Assembly (NCBI GenBank): GCA_951813565.1
Contig: OX638351.1
Span: 3,552,001-3,616,000 of the forward strand
Source of the DNA: an uncultured Poribacteria bacterium
GTDB taxonomy: Bacteria; Poribacteria; WGA-4E; WGA-3G
DNA length: 64,000 nucleotides
Direction: 5' to 3'
Made by a program: the position numbers. Position 1 is the first letter of the stretch. Every line of letters begins with the position of its first letter. This document shows positions 18,001 through 27,000 of this stretch, piece after piece.

Positions 18001-21000
18001 GTTATAAAACTTATTGACCATTCTTCAGGAATAGTCAGTTTCAGTTGATCGAAACCGTCCACGCTAACGATAACTAATCGGTTCTTCATCCCAAAGATAA
18101 CATCCAGTATAAAGAGTGGATTTTTCGGAACTTATCTCATGATATAGAATGTATTTTCCATCCGGTGACCAACGTGGACGATTCTTCTGAATATTAGGCT
18201 TTTGTGGTGTGAGCGGTTTTGCTTTCTTGGTTTTAACATCCATGATGTAAATTGATTGCCCCCGGCGGCGCGCACTCTGTTCATAAGCAATATATTTCCC
18301 ATCGGGTGACCAACTTGGGTCATTTGCAGAACCGTCAATACCTTTCTTCCATTACGGTTGCTCGTGAATGCGATACGTCGTCCATCTGGCGCCCATGACG
18401 CACCACCGTCTCTTGCAGGATGCTTGGTTAGATTCCGTTGATTGTTACCATCGGCATCCATGATGAAAATGTCAAACTGTTTGTTTCTAATGTCGGCATC
18501 TATATCTCTTGTAAAAGCAATTTGTTTTCCGTCCGGCGACCAGACAGGATTTTTTTCAAAAAACTGGTTATCTGTCAGTCTCTGGACACGGCTTCCGTCG
18601 TCGTTCATCACATAGATTTCACGAGTGTCGTCACGGGAAGATGTGAAGACGATCTTTGCTTGCGCGAATGTTGAAGTGAGCAGAATGAGAACTACTGTTA
18701 TCCATAGTATCTGTCTTAACATGGAAAATTTTCTCCTTTAGGTTGTAAGGTGGCTATGCTGCCAATGCAGCAAATATTGCCTTAATATAACCAACAGAAT
18801 ACGCCAATCCTACATTACCCTCTAACCTCGGAATATGGTCGGCATTGATACATCCATCAAATCCAACCTTTTGTAGTTCACGCACAATCTTGAACATATT
18901 CATATCACCATCGTCAAGGAGCGTCTCCTCAAATGCGCCTGCTGTTGCAAGACTACCACGTACATTCCGTAGGTGAACCATAAAGATACGCCCTTTGCGT
19001 CCGTAATTGTTAATCTCATCAAGCACAATGGCGCTTCCCCCTGCTTCAGCACGGGTTCCGCAACAGTAAAGATAACCGACATTCCTGCTTGGGAAGGCAT
19101 CAATCACGCGATGAAAGCCGAGACTACCGAGAGGTGTATCTGGATTTGGCACATCCGAAGGATGAATGGCAAGTTTAATACCGTATTCATCAGCAATAGG
19201 CACCAACGCGCGATAGACCTCGCAGAACCGTTTCCACCATTCTTCAAGTTCTTCCATTGTCGGCGTGGGAGGTGGGTCTTGTGTTGCTGCACGGCTTTCT
19301 CCGCGCGAAATATAACCACCACGATGCACTGCAGAATAACGCGTCATCAAATAGTCGAAAGTATCACCCCAGAACCGTTGGCGTGCGATAGGTGCACCCG
19401 CTTCGGCAAATACTTTGAGAGCGTTGCACGTATTTTCTAATTCTTTTTCGCCATCGGGGTGCCCTTTCATAAACTTTTCAGTAATGTTCGGAAGCGTCAC
19501 CCGATTGATATCCAAGCCGTAAGAACGAATCAACTTTTTCATTTTCAGCAGTTCGTCTAAATCGGGGTAACCTTGTTCGCTAACACCCGGGAAAGAACCA
19601 CCGTTCCCAAAATCGATACAGTCAGCACCGAGTTGTGTAATCTGTTTCAGATAGGTCTCTGAAAGTCCACCGTCCCATACAGATATTTTCATTCTTTTTC
19701 CTCTATAACGGTAATGCGACAGGTTGTCCAATTTCAACAGATTGATACGCTGCTAAGGCAATTTCAACTGCAGCGCGCCCATCAGCACCGGTAATTAGCG
19801 GTGGTGTGTCATTTCGAATTGCTTCTACAAAAACGCGAATCTCTTGTTGGACAGGAGGTGGCACCTGAATATCGCTAATCTTGATGCTTCTGCCTTTACC
19901 TTCAAAGGGTTTTATCTGGATTGCGGCATCGCCACCCCAGATTTGCGGGAAGTAAATAGTGCCTTTTTCGCAATCTACTCGTCCACCATACCCGCCAACT
20001 GCGGCAGCATGGCTGGAATGTAGCAACCCAACAGCACCGTTCTTAAAGTTTAAAGATGCAAGTACTACATCTGGATAGTCTGTATGTTCATGTACATATT
20101 GTCCACCAACGCCGTACACCCTTGAGACATCCCCACAGGTCCATCTCATAAAGTCAACCTCATGAGCATTTATCTCCATGAGACTGCCTCCAGATTTTGC
20201 ACGTTCCAAACGCCAAGGAACACGATTTCCGCCTGACCAAGGGCCACCGATACGATGCACCATCATGTTGACTGGTGGTCCCAATTCACCGCTATGGACA
20301 ATCTCACGGACTTTAGAATGCGTGGCATGGTAGCGACAAACCAAACCGATTGTGAGTTTGATCCCGTTTTCAGAAGCAGCATTGATCATCGCATCGCAGT
20401 CTTCCAATGTCGGTGCCATCGGTTTTTCGGAGAAAACATGTTTACCCGCATTCGCAGCATCAACTGCCATCTGCGCATGTAGGAACGGAGGTGAAGCAAT
20501 TAGTACTGCCTGAATGTTATCATTAGCGAGCAGTTCATGATAATCAGTTGTGTAGTTTGTGTTGAGGTTATTTGCGAGAGTTTTTGCCAATTCCTCTTGT
20601 AGGTCACTGACGCAGATAATCTCTATACCTTCAACAGCGTGTGCACCATTCGCAAGACTTCTGCCCATACCGCCGCATCCAATAACGCCAATTCCGATTG
20701 ATTCCATTTGTTGTTTCTCTCTCCAATGTATGTGGGTTACGGCACACGGAGCGTGCCAACTACTTTATCTTCGTCTCGCTTTGATTTGTCCCCATGTGAC
20801 GCTCAGATGATTTGAAGTAGGACTAACATCAAGTCCTTCAGCCTTCATGTTTGTCTGGACTTCTGCTGCGGTTAGTGCACGCTCATAAATACGGAATTCA
20901 TCTATATAGCCTTGTATCGTATCACAGTTACATCCATCTGATCTATCTCCGATTCCTAACTTAAGTCCACCTTTTGCGATTTTGCCACCAGCTACTGTAT

Positions 21001-24000: not shown

Positions 24001-27000
24001 CACCCGTCTCCGTCCCTACAATAGCAAGTGCAGACTCTGTGTCTACATTGAATCGGACTGCCCACCATTTATCATCGTGACTGAGTGCAGTTGTTCCCAT
24101 CGCAGCAGCTACCATGCCCTTCTCATTCATTTTAGTTGCAGCAAAGTTAACCAATTCTTGCTCTTCCAACGTTTCCAAGTCAAGTCGCCAACCGCTTGTG
24201 TCGGCGGTGAAAAATACTGACCTCCCATTGTGTGACGGATGTATAGACCATTCACTTAAGTCGTGTCTGTCAGTCAGTTGACGGAGCTGACCAGTGTTAC
24301 GTTCTTCAGCAAAAATCTGTGGCGTGCCGGTACGGTGTGATACAAAAATCAACCGCTGCATCGCGTCATCATACGCTGGAATAATAAAGAACGGATGATG
24401 ATGGTGTGCAGAAGCCATCGTCACTTGGCGGATGCGTGTACCGGTACGTCTATCATAAAACGTTCGAGATTCGGGTGAATAAACAGTCCCTTTTGCCATC
24501 TATTTGGTTCAAAAGTAGTGCATATATGAGCAGACATTGTATATATCTGCTCATTGTTATTTTTATTCTTCAAATGCGGCATCAAAGGCGACAGCAGAGG
24601 GTTCAAAATCATATCCCTTCACTGCACCACACGCTTCACGTGCGCCATGCTCGCGATCCATACCACTGTCTTCCCACTCAATGGAAAGCGGACCATCATA
24701 ACCGATATTGTTAAGCGCACGGATGATCTCTTCAAAATCAATATTGCCGCGTCCGATAGAGCGGAAATCCCAGAAACGTTTTGAATCACCGAAGTTCAAA
24801 TGTCCACCAAATACACCTGACAAACGTGGTGTTTCTGCCCACCAAACATCCTTCATGTGAACATGATAGATACGATCACTTAAGCGTTCAATAAATGCTA
24901 CATAATCAACGCCTTGATATCCAAGGTGACTGGGATCATAGTTGAAGCCGAAGGTTTCTCTGCCGTCAAGTGCCTCAATAGCGCGCTCAGCGGTCACAAT
25001 GTCAAATGCAATTTCAGTCGGATGGACTTCAAGCCCGAACTTAACACCAACCTCATCAAAAACATCAAAGATTGGATTCCAACGGTCCGCAAAATCTTCA
25101 AAGCCTGCGTCAATCTGCGCGGAGTCAACCGGTGGAAATGAGTAGAGTAGATGCCATATAGAACTGCCTGTAAAGCCGTTTACGACATCAACACCGAGTT
25201 TCGCTGCAGCGCGGGCAGTATTTTTCATCTCTTCTGCTGCGCGTTCCTGAACACCAGCGGGATCACCATCGCCCCAAATCTGTTCTGATATAATTCCTTG
25301 GTGTCGACTATCAATATTATCGCAAACCGCTTGCCCAACAAGGTGATTGCTGATTGACCAAACCTTCAATCCGTAATTTGCCAGCAGATCATGTCTGCCT
25401 TGACAGTAACTGTCGTCAGAAAGTGCTTTGTCTGTCTCAAAATGGTCGCCCCAGCAAGCAAGTTCCAAACCGTCGTATCCCCACTCGCTGGCTTTTTTTG
25501 CTAAATCTTCAAGTGTCAGGTCTGCCCACTGTCCTGTAAACAGAGTCACAGGTCTTGCCATATTCATTCTCCTTCATTGTATGCGGGGATTGTAACCCCG
25601 ATTTGCCTATCTCATTCTTGTGGGAGGGGTTTTCAACCCCGATATTCTTAGAAAACCAATCTCTTGTGGGAGGAGTTTTCAACCCCGATATTCTTAGAAA
25701 ACTAATCTCTTGTGGGAGGGGTTTTCAACCCCGATATTCTTAGAACATATTACGCGGGTGGTGTATAACTCGCATCAACCCAACCGCGCTGTTTTCCACT
25801 TTGGACTGCGGTATTGATGAAATGGACACCGCGGGCACCGTCTTGAACCGTCGGAAAATCTGTGTCAAATTCACCGGGGGATTCACCCGCAATTTTGGCT
25901 GCCATTGTGCGAGAAGCATTGACATAGATGTTCGCGAATGCCTCAATAAACGCCTCTGGATGTCCGAACGGAATCCGAGAATTGTGTTGCACAATTTCTG
26001 CAAGGTAATCGTTGCCACGTTTATAGACCTGTTCTGGTCCGTCAGGGAAACGAACAGAGAGATAATTCGGGTTTTCTTGATGCCATTCCAGTGATGCTTC
26101 TGTTCCGTATACGCGGATACGAAGGTTATTTTCTTCGCCTACTGAGATTTGTGAAGCAAACAAAATACCGCGGACACCGCTTTCATAATGAACCAAGAGA
26201 TTTCCATCGTCCTCTAACAAACGTCCTTGGACAAAAGTGGTCATGTCAGCACATATCTCTTCCATTTCAAGCCCAGTGATATAGTGTGCCAAATTCTCTG
26301 CGTGTGAGCCAATGTCTCCGATACACGATGAGGCACCCGCTTGTTTAGGATCTGTCCGCCATACAGCTTGCTTTGCACCTTCGTTTTCCAGAAATGTGGA
26401 AAGCCATCCTTGCGGATATTCAACGACTATTTTGCGAATTGTGCCGAGCTTTCCCTCTTTTATCAGTTCACGGGCTTGCTTAACCATCGGGTAACCTGTG
26501 TAATTGTGGGTCAGCGCAAAGACTACATCATGTAACTTAACAAGACGACAGAGGGATTCGGCGTCTTCAACTGTTGTTGTCATCGGTTTATCACAGACAA
26601 CATGGAATCCTGCTTCTATGAAGGTTTTCGCGACATCAAAATGAACATGATTTGGCGTGACGATTGAGACAAAATCTATGCGTTCACCTTCAGGAAATTG
26701 GCTCTCTTTTTCTGCCATCTCCTTATATGAACCGTAAACTCTGTTTGCATCAAGAAAGAGTTCAGCACCCTGTTGTCGTGATTTCTCAGGCGAAGATGAA
26801 AAAGCACCAGCAACTAAGTCTATTTCACCATCAAGTGCCGCAGCTTTTCGATGCACAGCCCCAATGAATGCATCCGGTCCACCGCCTACCATTCCATAAC
26901 GTATTTTCCTACCAAGTGGCATATTGCGTATCCACTCCTTATATTCGGTGTGCGATTACATCTGCATGCTACAACCTGCGATATATCAACACACGTGATA

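Follow-up and report, generated by a model that had tools for sequence, protein, structure and literature searches.

Gene Content of the Locus

The genome of this sponge symbiont, a member of Candidatus Poribacteria, consists of a single contig of 5.43 Mb, from which a window of 64,000 nucleotides was analyzed. Seven consecutive minus-strand genes, identified by their Pfam families, occupy 8.2 kb of this window (Table 1) and make up two adjoining modules of predicted cytoplasmic enzymes. Module A is a pair composed of a Gfo/Idh/MocA (GFO) oxidoreductase and a xylose-isomerase-like TIM barrel. Module B comprises a PL22-like lyase, a crystallin-DUF1349 protein and a second GFO and TIM barrel, GFO_334 and TIM_327. 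The signal-peptide-like N-termini of the Laminin_G_3 protein LamG_277, the PD40 propeller fragment and the three divergent SASA-type esterases suggest that these proteins act outside the cytoplasm. All such calls derive from our own hydrophobicity heuristics applied to the longest open reading frames, rather than from a trained predictor.

Table 1. Genes of the cluster and its flank, in window coordinates.
Feature	Position	Strand	Length (aa)	Pfam match
GFO_390, Gfo/Idh/MocA; module A, gene 1	25750..26922	-	390	PF01408, PF22725, PF02894
TIM_334, AP_endonuc_2 xylose-isomerase-like TIM barrel; module A, gene 2	24563..25567	-	334	PF01261 (E 6e-44)
PL22-like oligogalacturonate lyase, beta-propeller; module B, gene 1	23408..24499	-	363	PF14583 (E 5.6e-23)
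Beta/gamma-crystallin + DUF1349 (ConA-like); module B	21927..23318	-	463	PF00030 (E 3e-15), PF07081 (E 5.6e-15), PF17851 (E 2.6e-9)
LamG_277, Laminin_G_3, predicted exported	20765..21598	-	277	PF13385 (E 6e-26)
GFO_334, Gfo/Idh/MocA; module B	19703..20707	-	334	PF01408 (E 1e-27)
TIM_327, UxuA-like/AP_endonuc_2 TIM barrel; module B	18754..19737	-	327	PF03786 (E 3.5e-23), PF01261 (E 1.4e-14)
PD40 (TolB-like) beta-propeller fragment, predicted exported; last gene of the run	18132..18722	-	196	PF07676 (E 1e-23)
Three tandem SASA-type carbohydrate esterases, predicted exported; divergent from the cluster	12388..17723	+	518/512/509	PF03629 (E 2e-17 to 6e-20)

Module A and Its Characterized Relatives

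TIM_334 matches the structure 2zds most closely (E 7.3e-129, ~62% identity) and also aligns over its full length (residues 10-329) with 8ro4, deposited as '2-hydroxy-3-keto-glucal hydratase' (E 1.2e-46, 162.8 bits, ~35% identity); the motifs HP.E, DPSH, H.KD and EWE are common to all three. The latter enzyme, AtHYD of Agrobacterium, is described as hydrating 2-hydroxy-3-keto-D-glucal, while the Gfo oxidoreductase of the same operon reduces 3-keto-D-glucose (PMC10628242). GFO_390, which has a Rossmann motif from residue 7 and lacks a signal peptide by our heuristic, is closest in structure to 3v5n (E 1.5e-117), 7d5n/7d5m (~1e-77) and 3dty (3.4e-76), and scores 117 bits against the NCBIfam levoglucosan dehydrogenase model LevoglcsnDh, below its cut-off of 650. 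It is 44-46% identical to GFO proteins encoded directly beside hydratase-like TIM barrels on Rhizobium plasmid pRlX3 and a Phaeobacter plasmid, loci at which a sugar ABC transporter separates that TIM barrel from a second GFO and a small TIM barrel. The relationship is a reciprocal best hit (342 bits versus 79 for the next protein), and module A is the only strong match in the genome to this alphaproteobacterial pair (166 versus 53 bits for the TIM barrel).

The closest characterized relatives of module A are AtHYD and the Gfo of the Agrobacterium 3-keto-glucoside operon, with the GFO likeness measured on the Rhizobium and Phaeobacter sequences; the Agrobacterium pAt locus that was examined holds another TIM-GFO pair and not the published Gfo. 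TIM_334 differs from AtHYD in belonging to its own tightly conserved group, together with the uncharacterized SCO6571 structure 2zds, and 35% identity leaves its substrate unfixed by sequence. By homology, TIM_334 would be a metal-dependent enzyme adding water to an enone of 2-hydroxy-3-keto-glycal type to yield a 3-keto sugar, whose C3 ketone GFO_390 would reduce with NADH, or it would act in reverse as a C3 dehydrogenase. Module A might then constitute the back half of an oxidation-elimination-hydration-reduction route whose substrate is a small sugar taken up by the cell. An AtOGE-type eliminase was not detected in the cluster (8bvk is absent from the PDB matches of TIM_334 and TIM_327), and the route would therefore be locally incomplete. 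These proposed substrates and the reaction direction are drawn from homology, adjacency and conservation.

The conservation of the pair is extensive. Relatives of TIM_334 with 62-78% identity occur in many phyla, and orthologs are present in eight of nine distant Poribacteria genomes. The two genes are adjacent at 8/8 close and 3/5 distant Poribacteria loci, and among 71 loci from other phyla, 23 have a GFO_390 homolog (identity 40% or more) in their flanks. Module A is a two-gene unit kept together across many phyla. At loci of Pirellulales and Truepera it adjoins monosaccharide-type (Peripla_BP_4) ABC transporters, an arrangement compatible with inositol or a monosaccharide as substrate as well.

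Module B as a Candidate Uronide Pathway

The PL22-like protein, predicted to be cytoplasmic, matches PF14583 over residues 1-362 (81.7 bits, cut-off 30) and the structures 3pe7 (E 3.6e-23) and 3c5m (E 4e-21). Residues R217, H242, H287, Q350, H353 and H355 of 3pe7, which we take to be the active-site positions, are all identical in the alignment, and this conservation of the uronate-lyase residues indicates a uronide substrate. TIM_327 matches PF03786 only in its C-terminal half (residues 165-309), as well as the mannonate dehydratase 3ban (E 1.3e-15), and reaches 65.8 bits against the NCBIfam mannonate dehydratase model (cut-off 191); it is proposed to be a sugar-acid dehydratase or isomerase. 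The predicted cytoplasmic GFO_334 has generic structural matches, the best being 3ezy (E 3.9e-33), and falls below the cut-offs of the NCBIfam models IolG (168.7 versus 355 bits), UDP-GlcNAc 3-dehydrogenase (165 versus 450) and BT_2159_fam (51.7 versus 650). The crystallin-DUF1349 protein has weak PDB matches only and lacks an N-terminal hydrophobic segment, which predicts a cytoplasmic location. Module B most likely serves uronide catabolism, a reading that draws on a single family assignment at ~24% identity and on the presumed residue roles. The lyase would use Mn-dependent beta-elimination to split short oligosaccharides of uronides, leaving unsaturated or keto-uronate products that the remaining enzymes would reduce and dehydrate.

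The PL22-like protein of module B is found in 4/11 Poribacteria genomes. Among family-level relatives the crystallin-DUF1349 gene is kept next to PL22, and at the eight close loci all seven genes are present in three (L004, L006, L007) and six in two more (L005, L008); genome G025 likewise has six. At the five distant Poribacteria loci, none of the PL22, crystallin-DUF1349, LamG, GFO_334 or TIM_327 genes lies beside the module A pair, while genome G015 carries a PL22-like, UxuA-like TIM and GFO trio at a different site without that pair. The two modules are thus separable, standing side by side within one Poribacteria family.

LamG_277, one of ~77 paralogs, is missing in G025, where the rest of the cluster is conserved. 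It has no PF06439 match at E<=0.001 and resembles the LamG domains of an S-layer protein, pappalysin and pentraxin in the PDB; it is a variable insert in the cluster and not a PF06439 (3-keto-disaccharide hydrolase) protein.

Genome-Wide Families and Their Arrangement

The genome-wide survey's note had placed this locus in an arsenal for oxidative glycan breakdown, and most of its counts were reproduced. It listed 101 GFO genes, 52 TIM barrels and 27 MR_MLE genes, compared with 102 PF01408 matches, 52 PF01261 matches and 27 genes (29 MR_MLE_C rows) here; its 121 PhyH genes became 126 with a profile built from the window's own PhyH. The scarcity of classical hydrolases was also recovered within nine Pfam families, which yielded seven genes above cut-off (GH13, GH3, GH2 and GH127, one each; BNR_2, three) and none for GH43, GH78, GH29 or GH88. 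The 84 LamG/3-keto-disaccharide-hydrolase-like proteins stood as a number (77+8 genes) but not as a class, since about nine in ten are plain Laminin_G_3 (PF13385; 81 rows, 79 above cut-off, 77 genes on our gene call) and only eight match PF06439. An alignment of Laminin_G_3 with the genome's PF06439 proteins spans 38 columns at 52% probability, and the LamG proteins are unrelated to that family beyond the level of the fold. A second island of the genome holds a TIM barrel, a GFO, a PF06439 protein and a further GFO together with a symporter.

The statement that the oxidoreductases best match glycoside 3-dehydrogenases failed against three curated models: NF058561 gave no GFO hit at E<=1e-20, and the best GFO scores for NF058563 and NF052479 were 76 and 129 bits, both below a cut-off of 650. 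Curated models identify only three of the 52 TIM barrels (as RhaI, XylA and Nfo), and with their closest paralog GFO proteins share a median of 34% identity and TIM proteins 27%. A strong N-terminal hydrophobic segment is found in 1/102 GFO and 0/52 TIM proteins, compared with 71/77 Laminin_G_3 and 6/8 PF06439 proteins. A permissive twin-arginine rule recovered 4/4 controls, one of 102 GFO proteins (by eye a Rossmann strand) and none of the 52 TIM barrels, and the genome search found no GMC oxidoreductase. By these predictions, a periplasmic oxidizing step of either known type is absent.

Gene order was assessed on a rough call of 4585 longest-ORF genes with 2000 random placements, counting as neighbors genes within two positions. 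The reported clustering was confirmed for GFO with TIM barrels (12/102 versus 4.6+-2.1 expected; reached in 5/2000 placements), GFO with GFO (21 versus 8.8+-3.9; 5/2000) and GFO with PhyH (21/102 versus 10.8+-3.1; 8/2000), as was the lack of enrichment of Laminin_G_3 beside GFO (6 versus 6.7+-2.5). GFO with MR_MLE gave 5 versus 2.4+-1.5 (168/2000). The paralogs are, as noted earlier, mostly scattered, 90/102 GFO genes having no TIM barrel within two genes. Genome-wide, the GFO and TIM enzymes neighbor PhyH dioxygenases more often than TIM barrels, and 21/77 Laminin_G_3 genes likewise lie within two genes of PhyH (8.1+-2.7 expected).

GFO matches occur in 41/41 sampled Poribacteria genomes, with 53-181 first-look candidates each, of which at most 81 were scored per genome. 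Latescibacterota have 130-133 first-look candidates; the expansion is phylum-wide in Poribacteria but not special to them.

Alternative Readings of the Locus

There is a small but appreciable chance that module A pairs an inositol- or monosaccharide-type dehydrogenase with an inosose or keto-sugar dehydratase or isomerase, as part of myo/scyllo-inositol-like catabolism unrelated to glycosidic cleavage. The structures 7d5m/7d5n presumably represent an inositol dehydrogenase homolog, and the transporters adjoining the pair in Pirellulales and Truepera are consistent with such a role. The clade of GFO_390, with its closest structures 3v5n and 3dty, is grouped with a scyllo-inositol dehydrogenase (PMC5969746), and myo-inositol use by Poribacteria is cited from Kamke (2013) by Bayer (2018). 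TIM_334 does match IolE weakly, but module A is far below the curated cut-offs (IolE, 53.7 versus 290 bits; IolG, 48.8 versus 355), a much better IolE candidate exists elsewhere in the genome (locus L130, 226 bits), and the AtHYD match of TIM_334 (162.8 bits) exceeds its match to the IolE structure 3cny (31 bits) at least threefold. That the seven genes instead make up a single 3-keto pathway operon, complete and novel, with the PL22-like or a ConA-like protein (DUF1349, LamG) as a new 3-keto-glycoside eliminase, is unlikely. Their common strand, short gaps and synteny in close relatives would suit it, as would the Mn-dependent beta-eliminase nature of the PL22 fold and a gene content of GFO, TIM and ConA-like proteins, two of each, which are also the kinds of family in the AL/BT system. 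Against it stand the separation of the pair at 5/5 more distant loci, the trio of G015, the predicted export of LamG_277 and its loss in G025, and the conserved uronate-lyase residues.

The broadest reading, in which Poribacteria break down glycans mainly by oxidation-elimination-hydration-reduction and ~240 GFO, TIM and LamG paralogs form a non-Koshland library replacing glycoside hydrolases, is unlikely. It is favored by the correct counts, the GFO-TIM adjacency, the few hydrolases in the nine families, the phylum-wide GFO expansion, the pair homologous to AtHYD/Gfo and the second island. Deep paralog divergence is expected if each paralog has its own substrate, and the Nasseri preprint predicts varied cluster architecture and distant sequence similarity. 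It is countered by the failure of all GFO candidates at the 3-dehydrogenase models, the few TIM barrels with curated identities, the mostly unpaired GFO genes and the lack of a predicted periplasmic oxidizing step. Moreover, the Laminin_G_3 proteins are not PF06439-like, are predicted to be exported while the GFO and TIM enzymes are cytoplasmic, and accompany PhyH rather than GFO; the genome has only five SBP_bac_8-type binding proteins through which a cytoplasmic library could be supplied with substrates; and hydrolases and esterases are described as enriched in Poribacteria by dbCAN (Robbins, 2021). Of the proposed arsenal, one homologous pair stands, TIM_334 and GFO_390; because only this pair can be tied to oxidative breakage of sugar links, the claim for the whole arsenal is not borne out. 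With the curated models, the LamG class, the mostly unpaired GFO genes and the Latescibacterota comparison failing to support it, a phylum-level main strategy would be an extrapolation from family names.

The 102 GFO proteins and the ~48 TIM barrels left without assignment have diverged deeply; they lack signals and are hence predicted to be cytoplasmic enzymes, mostly without an assigned substrate. For the locus itself, the favored and somewhat probable interpretation is that it comprises two cytoplasmic sugar-processing modules, rather than a single instance of an arsenal for 3-keto glycan cleavage spread through the genome.

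The Gene Cluster and Its Leading Pair

The first two genes, in transcription order, of a seven-gene cluster encode a GFO/IDH/MocA oxidoreductase (GFO; PF01408) and a xylose-isomerase-like TIM barrel protein (PF01261), designated GFO_390 and TIM_334, with a gap of 183 bases between them. As judged by homology, the two form a conserved pair related to the hydratase and Gfo oxidoreductase of the 3-keto-glucoside route.

Features of the cluster, its surroundings, and a second island elsewhere in the genome (window positions, unless a G000 prefix, denoting the window's own genome, is given; families of the cluster genes and the PD40 fragment from Pfam)
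Feature	Position	Strand	Description
GFO_390	25750-26922	-	Gfo/Idh/MocA oxidoreductase, 390 aa; first in transcription order
TIM_334	24563-25567	-	xylose-isomerase-like TIM barrel, 334 aa; second
PL22-like protein	23408-24499	-	oligogalacturonate-lyase beta-propeller, 363 aa; third
Crystallin protein	21927-23318	-	beta/gamma-crystallin + DUF1349, 463 aa; fourth
LamG_277	20765-21598	-	Laminin_G_3 protein, 277 aa; fifth
GFO_334	19703-20707	-	second GFO, 334 aa; sixth
TIM_327	18754-19737	-	UxuA-like TIM barrel, 327 aa; seventh
PD40 propeller fragment	18132-18722		after TIM_327
SASA-type esterases	12388-17723		sialate O-acetylesterase-like; three tandem paralogs of ~510 aa, each with signal peptide; divergent from cluster
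Second island (L143)	G000:C1:3251629-3262296		genes on one strand; core G000 3255706-3261177

The closest solved relative of TIM_334 is the uncharacterised S. coelicolor protein SCO6571 (PDB 2zds; E 7e-129, 62% identity). Residues 10-329 also align with residues 14-331 of AtHYD, the "2-hydroxy-3-keto-glucal hydratase" (8ro4; E 1.2e-46, ~35% identity), and the metal-site-like motifs HP.E, DPSH, H.KD, and EWE are common to all three proteins. By homology, TIM_334 is thus a candidate hydratase TIM barrel of the AtHYD type, although its own orthologous group, that of 2zds, is a different one with wider conservation. In the Agrobacterium tumefaciens O-glucoside pathway (GlycDH, AtOGE, AtHYD, Gfo), AtHYD is described as hydrating the elimination product, 2-hydroxy-3-keto-D-glucal; the resulting 3-keto-D-glucose is then reduced to glucose by a Gfo oxidoreductase encoded in that operon (PMC10628242). 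The hydratase TIM barrel directly adjoins a GFO in that pathway as in the window, and AtHYD and TIM_334 are both cytoplasmic, but the order in the window is GFO followed by TIM barrel rather than the reverse. Moreover, the FAD/GMC glycoside 3-dehydrogenase of the Agrobacterium pathway is absent from the genome (PF00732, no match among 14 scored candidates), and the Mn-dependent beta-eliminase of the AtOGE type (8bvk) is absent from the PDB matches of TIM_327 (four at E≤0.01) and of TIM_334 (eight at E≤0.001).

The nearest structure to GFO_390 is an S. meliloti oxidoreductase (3v5n; E 1.5e-117), which has been termed biochemically uncharacterised (PMC5969746), followed by 7d5n/7d5m and 3dty. 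On a Rhizobium plasmid (L140) and a Phaeobacter plasmid (L141), a hydratase-like TIM barrel gene directly adjoins a GFO gene, and a sugar ABC transporter lies between this pair and a second pair composed of a GFO and a small TIM barrel. GFO_390 shares 44-46% identity with the GFO and TIM_334 33-34% with the TIM barrel of these loci. When the genome was searched with the plasmid pair, TIM_334 (166 bits, next 53) and GFO_390 (342 bits, next 79) were the sole strong matches. GFO_390 is accordingly placed as a putative Gfo beside a hydratase by comparison with the two plasmid GFOs, rather than with the published Agrobacterium Gfo. A pAt locus considered as the published Agrobacterium operon was dropped, as its accessions differ from those named in PMC10628242.

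The pair extends well beyond Poribacteria. A pattern search for TIM_334 relatives, in which 600 of 601 matched stretches were confirmed and 79 loci kept, recovered proteins of 62-78% identity from Planctomycetota, Bacteroidota, Gemmatimonadota, Chloroflexota, Latescibacterota, Armatimonadota, Spirochaetota, and Deinococcota. A GFO_390 homologue (≥40% identity) was present within the flanks of all 8 Poribacteria loci and of 23 of the 71 loci from other phyla, many of the latter contigs being short. Monosaccharide-type ABC transporters adjoin the pair in Pirellulales and Truepera; two Bacteroidota/Bacteroidales MAG loci had no sugar context around it.

A Second Module in the Same Cluster

The remaining cluster genes behave differently from the pair. 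Of five loci from more distant Poribacteria, all had the TIM_334 ortholog and three an adjacent GFO_390, and none of the other five cluster genes lay near the ortholog at any of them. The PL22-like gene occurred in 4 of 11 genomes searched. A genome of the same family and another genus (G025) carries the cluster whole but for the LamG gene, and in a further Poribacteria genome (G015) a distance of 2.8 Mb separates the PL22-like gene from the pair, and the genes that follow it encode another UxuA-like TIM barrel and another GFO. These arrangements show that the trio of lyase, TIM barrel, and GFO recurs on its own.

On PF14583 the PL22-like protein scores 81.7 bits (gathering score 30), with residues 1-362 of 363 covering profile positions 1-382 of 386. 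Six residues of the oligogalacturonate lyase structure 3pe7 (R217, H242, H287, Q350, H353, and H355), which we take to be the catalytic His/Arg and Mn-ligand residues, are all identical in the HMMER alignment. The window protein therefore resembles PL22 oligogalacturonate lyases (Ogl; 3pe7, 3c5m) in its full-length match, cytoplasmic place, and six active-site positions, but it is only ~24% identical to them, its partners are a GFO and a UxuA-like TIM barrel, and no family of the KduI/KduD or UxaA/B/C type is found among the annotated cluster genes. The match and the retained residues suggest an enzyme that cleaves uronides by beta-elimination, whose monomer products the GFO and TIM barrel would then process. 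TIM_327 falls short of the UxuA mannonate dehydratase model (65.8 bits, cut-off 191; residues 166-317 only), and in Pfam it aligns with the UxuA profile at positions 178-326 of 352. Neither cluster GFO attained the NCBIfam equivalog cut-off of 355 for IolG (GFO_334, 168.7 bits; GFO_390, 48.8 bits), nor did TIM_334 attain that of 290 for IolE (53.7 bits). Because a putative uronide module stands beside the GFO_390-TIM_334 pair, adjacency of GFO and TIM barrel genes has at least two meanings in this single stretch.

Family Sizes and Gene Order Across the Genome

The genome, a single contig of 5.43 Mb that is 95% complete, contains 102 PF01408 and 52 PF01261 genes, in agreement to within a few genes with the table of the genome-wide survey's note. 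There are also 27 MR_MLE_C genes and 126 PhyH-like genes, the latter defined as matches to a profile iterated from the window's own PhyH. The survey's set of 84 "LamG/3-keto-disaccharide-hydrolase-like" proteins holds as to size (79 PF13385 and 8 PF06439 proteins over cut-off) but not as to identity, since about nine-tenths are plain Laminin_G_3 (LamG_3) proteins. Gene order was assessed with a rough gene call of 4585 genes and 2000 random placements, neighbours being genes within two of each other. GFO genes lie beside TIM barrel genes above chance (12 of 102, expected 4.6±2.1; reached in 5 of 2000 placements), and clustering of GFO genes with one another (21, expected 8.8±3.9) and with PhyH genes (21, expected 10.8±3.1) was likewise borne out, as was the concession that LamG_3 genes are not enriched beside GFO genes (6, expected 6.7±2.5). 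Five GFO paralogs with similar N-termini stand in tandem on one strand (G000:C1:5050065-5056399) and feed the GFO-GFO signal. The scarcity of glycoside hydrolases stands for the nine Pfam families spot-checked, in which 7 genes exceeded the cut-off (GH13, 1; GH3, 1; GH2, 1; BNR_2, 3; GH127, 1; GH43, GH78, GH29, and GH88, 0 each).

GFO matches were found in all 41 sampled Poribacteria genomes, with 53-181 first-look candidates per genome, a measure that exceeds the number of true matches (115 candidates became 102 in the window's own genome). Such candidates numbered 133 and 130 in two Latescibacterota genomes (G042 and G043, reached via L013 and L014), similar to the numbers in Poribacteria, and there were 60 in a Bacteroidetes MAG and 53 in a Fontivita genome. 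GFO expansion is therefore phylum-wide yet not unique to Poribacteria, and it may be common to several marine or sponge-associated heterotroph phyla.

The LamG_3 proteins (~77, of 250-290 aa; window examples at 20765-21598 and 56159-56938) show a gene order of their own. They form tandem arrays, 34 of 77 having another LamG_3 gene at most two genes away (expected 5.0±3.0), and are enriched beside PhyH genes (21 of 77, expected 8.1±2.7; reached in none of 2000 placements). Of the LamG_3 proteins, 71 have signal-peptide-like N-termini; the PhyH proteins look cytoplasmic.

Oxidative Glycan Breakdown as a Proposed Explanation

The survey's note had read some 240 GFO, TIM barrel, and LamG paralogs as a library for oxidative 3-keto glycan breakdown that replaces hydrolases. 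The enrichment of GFO beside TIM barrel genes is real and hydrolases are scarce among the families tested, as this explanation expects, and a preprint by Nasseri anticipates such systems with varied architectures and distant sequences. The second island also lends it support, as it places a symporter, a TIM barrel, GFOs, and a PF06439 protein on one strand. Its order is Na+/solute symporter, 562 aa protein, TIM barrel (270 aa), SsfX3/GDSL esterase, and GFO, then F5/8-type-C protein, weak PF06439 protein (29 bits), 236 aa protein, GFO, and NAD epimerase, and it is the sole place seen with the three families together. The TIM barrel of this island (L112), considered as a 3-keto-glycoside lyase of a solved type, had no PDB match at E≤0.001. 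The claim that the GFOs best match glycoside 3-dehydrogenases was not supported by comparison with three curated NCBIfam models, none of which was reached by any candidate: no GFO of 99 matched the glycoside 3-dehydrogenase model NF058561 at E≤1e-20, the best GFO scored 76 bits against a cut-off of 650 for disaccharide 3-dehydrogenase (NF058563), and the best of 114 candidates scored 129 bits (GFO_390, 117) against 650 for levoglucosan dehydrogenase LgdA (NF052479). The levoglucosan pathway (LgdA/LgdB1/LgdB2/LgdC) employs GFO dehydrogenases and xylose-isomerase-like TIM barrels in oxidation, elimination, hydration, and reduction. Among the 52 TIM barrels, three exceed the cut-off of a curated model (those for L-rhamnose isomerase, xylose isomerase, and Nfo) and one more is near IolE; none of the 8 PF06439 proteins has a match among the curated models. 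The paralogs are old and diverse: nearest-paralog identity has a median of 34% for GFO (83 clusters at 40%) and 27% for TIM barrels (51 clusters), a divergence compatible with many substrates and silent on which. An alternative role of the GFO paralogs, namely that they feed enolase-superfamily sugar-acid dehydratases, was set aside, as their adjacency to MR_MLE genes is not significant (5 of 102, expected 2.4±1.5).

Cellular location weighs against the survey's proposal. Our own hydrophobicity heuristic, applied to each ORF at its longest possible extent, detected strongly hydrophobic N-terminal segments in 1 of 102 GFOs (the Rossmann strand itself), 0 of 52 TIM barrels, 2 of 126 PhyH, and 0 of 27 MR_MLE proteins, compared with 71 of 77 LamG_3 proteins, 6 of 8 PF06439 proteins, and 1399 of 4226 proteins in the whole proteome. 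A permissive twin-arginine rule recovered 4 of 4 positive controls, 1 of 102 GFOs (false by eye), and 0 of 52 TIM barrels. In other bacteria, DUF1080 (PF06439) proteins are reported to work alongside a dehydrogenase in the periplasm (PMC9007349), while the partners proposed here are predicted to lie on opposite sides of the membrane. Nor does the LamG_3 profile (72 small paralogs) align with the 8 PF06439 proteins over more than 38 columns, with 52% probability, and a cytoplasmic library would need many importers, whereas SBP_bac_8-type binding proteins, the one transporter family searched, number five. The AL/BT cluster of gut Bacteroidota, reported to comprise a GFO 3-dehydrogenase (AL/BT3), a TIM-barrel beta-lyase (AL/BT1), and a DUF1080 alpha-lyase/hydratase (AL/BT2; 10.1101/2024.03.25.586180), offers a close comparison. 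All three of its protein superfamilies are represented in the genome, and some of them in the cluster, and the reaction logic of the GFO_390-TIM_334 pair would be the same. However, the genome is without an ortholog of BT_2158 or BT_2159 (the two cluster GFOs score 43 and 51.7 bits with models of that type), the ConA-like proteins of the cluster are Laminin_G_3 and DUF1349 rather than DUF1080, with no PF06439 protein among them, and 2 of the 8 PF06439 proteins genome-wide lie within two genes of a GFO. The PDB matches of the two PF01261 proteins in the cluster show no AL/BT TIM-barrel lyase, judged by molecule name. Finally, the components of an AL/BT-type system would be expected in a single compartment; here, by the same heuristic, GFO and TIM barrel proteins lack the export signals that LamG and DUF1080 proteins carry.

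Taken together, the genome-wide observation is confirmed and its interpretation partly supported, in that one conserved pair belongs by homology to the known hydratase/Gfo kind. The broad claim puts secreted LamG proteins and cytoplasmic enzymes into one class and relies on family names alone, and its phylum-scale version is an extrapolation weakened by several of these tests. It is improbable, in our estimate, that Poribacteria (perhaps also Latescibacterota) take up small glycosides for cytoplasmic cleavage by large, fast-diverging sets of NAD-dependent GFO C3-dehydrogenases and TIM eliminases/hydratases too distant for curated models, offsetting a very small hydrolase complement, with GFO_390/TIM_334 as the shared step recycling every 3-keto-glycal product to normal sugar.

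Other Features of the Window

Several further genes were observed. Positions 27675-33656 encode three proteins, one of the DUF1501 family that carries a twin-arginine signal, one of the WD40 type, and one of 998 aa that has cytochrome c/haem-binding motifs and a PPC domain; pairing of DUF1501 with cytochrome c/PPC proteins is typical of Planctomycetota. A RecD2-type helicase gene comes directly after a tandem array of three Uma2-family genes, each for a putative restriction endonuclease of 189 aa (8241-12375). A 436 aa protein (49724-51034) has a partial TLC ATP/ADP transporter match (E 2e-13, C-terminal 90 residues), and its gene adjoins a PhyH gene (51065-51886). An ORF of 156 aa (2157-2627) matches only the C-terminal part of GRDB, the glycine/sarcosine/betaine reductase selenoprotein B (profile 208-345 of 347), and may represent either a gene fragment or a gene interrupted by TGA. 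An IS605 OrfB-like fragment (39084-39647, 187 aa) and a DDE transposase (44296-45336, 346 aa) enclose a DegT aminotransferase, a glycerol-3-phosphate-oxidase-like FAD enzyme, and a VWA protein.

Implications for Sugar Metabolism in Poribacteria

The accessible text of Kamke (2014) gives PhyH as the most abundant domain and has no occurrence of oxidoreductase, laminin, or xylose isomerase. In the dbCAN analysis of Robbins (2021), Poribacteria show an enrichment of hydrolases and esterases over other sponge symbionts. GH109, a family with the GFO fold, is reported as the most abundant "hydrolase" in sponge Chloroflexi by Bayer (2018), who refers to Kamke (2013) on the inositol and uronic acid pathways of Poribacteria. 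No paper proposing a 3-keto route for Poribacteria was found in the literature searched, a scope that left out most subscription journals.

Sponge symbionts account for much of the recycling of dissolved organic matter on reefs. A fair question is how Poribacteria cleave sugar linkages when their recognisable hydrolases are so few. The narrow, testable outcome is one GFO and TIM barrel pair that extends from Poribacteria to Planctomycetota, Bacteroidota, Gemmatimonadota, and Chloroflexota, and it provides a test case for whether 3-keto-sugar salvage is widespread in environmental bacteria.
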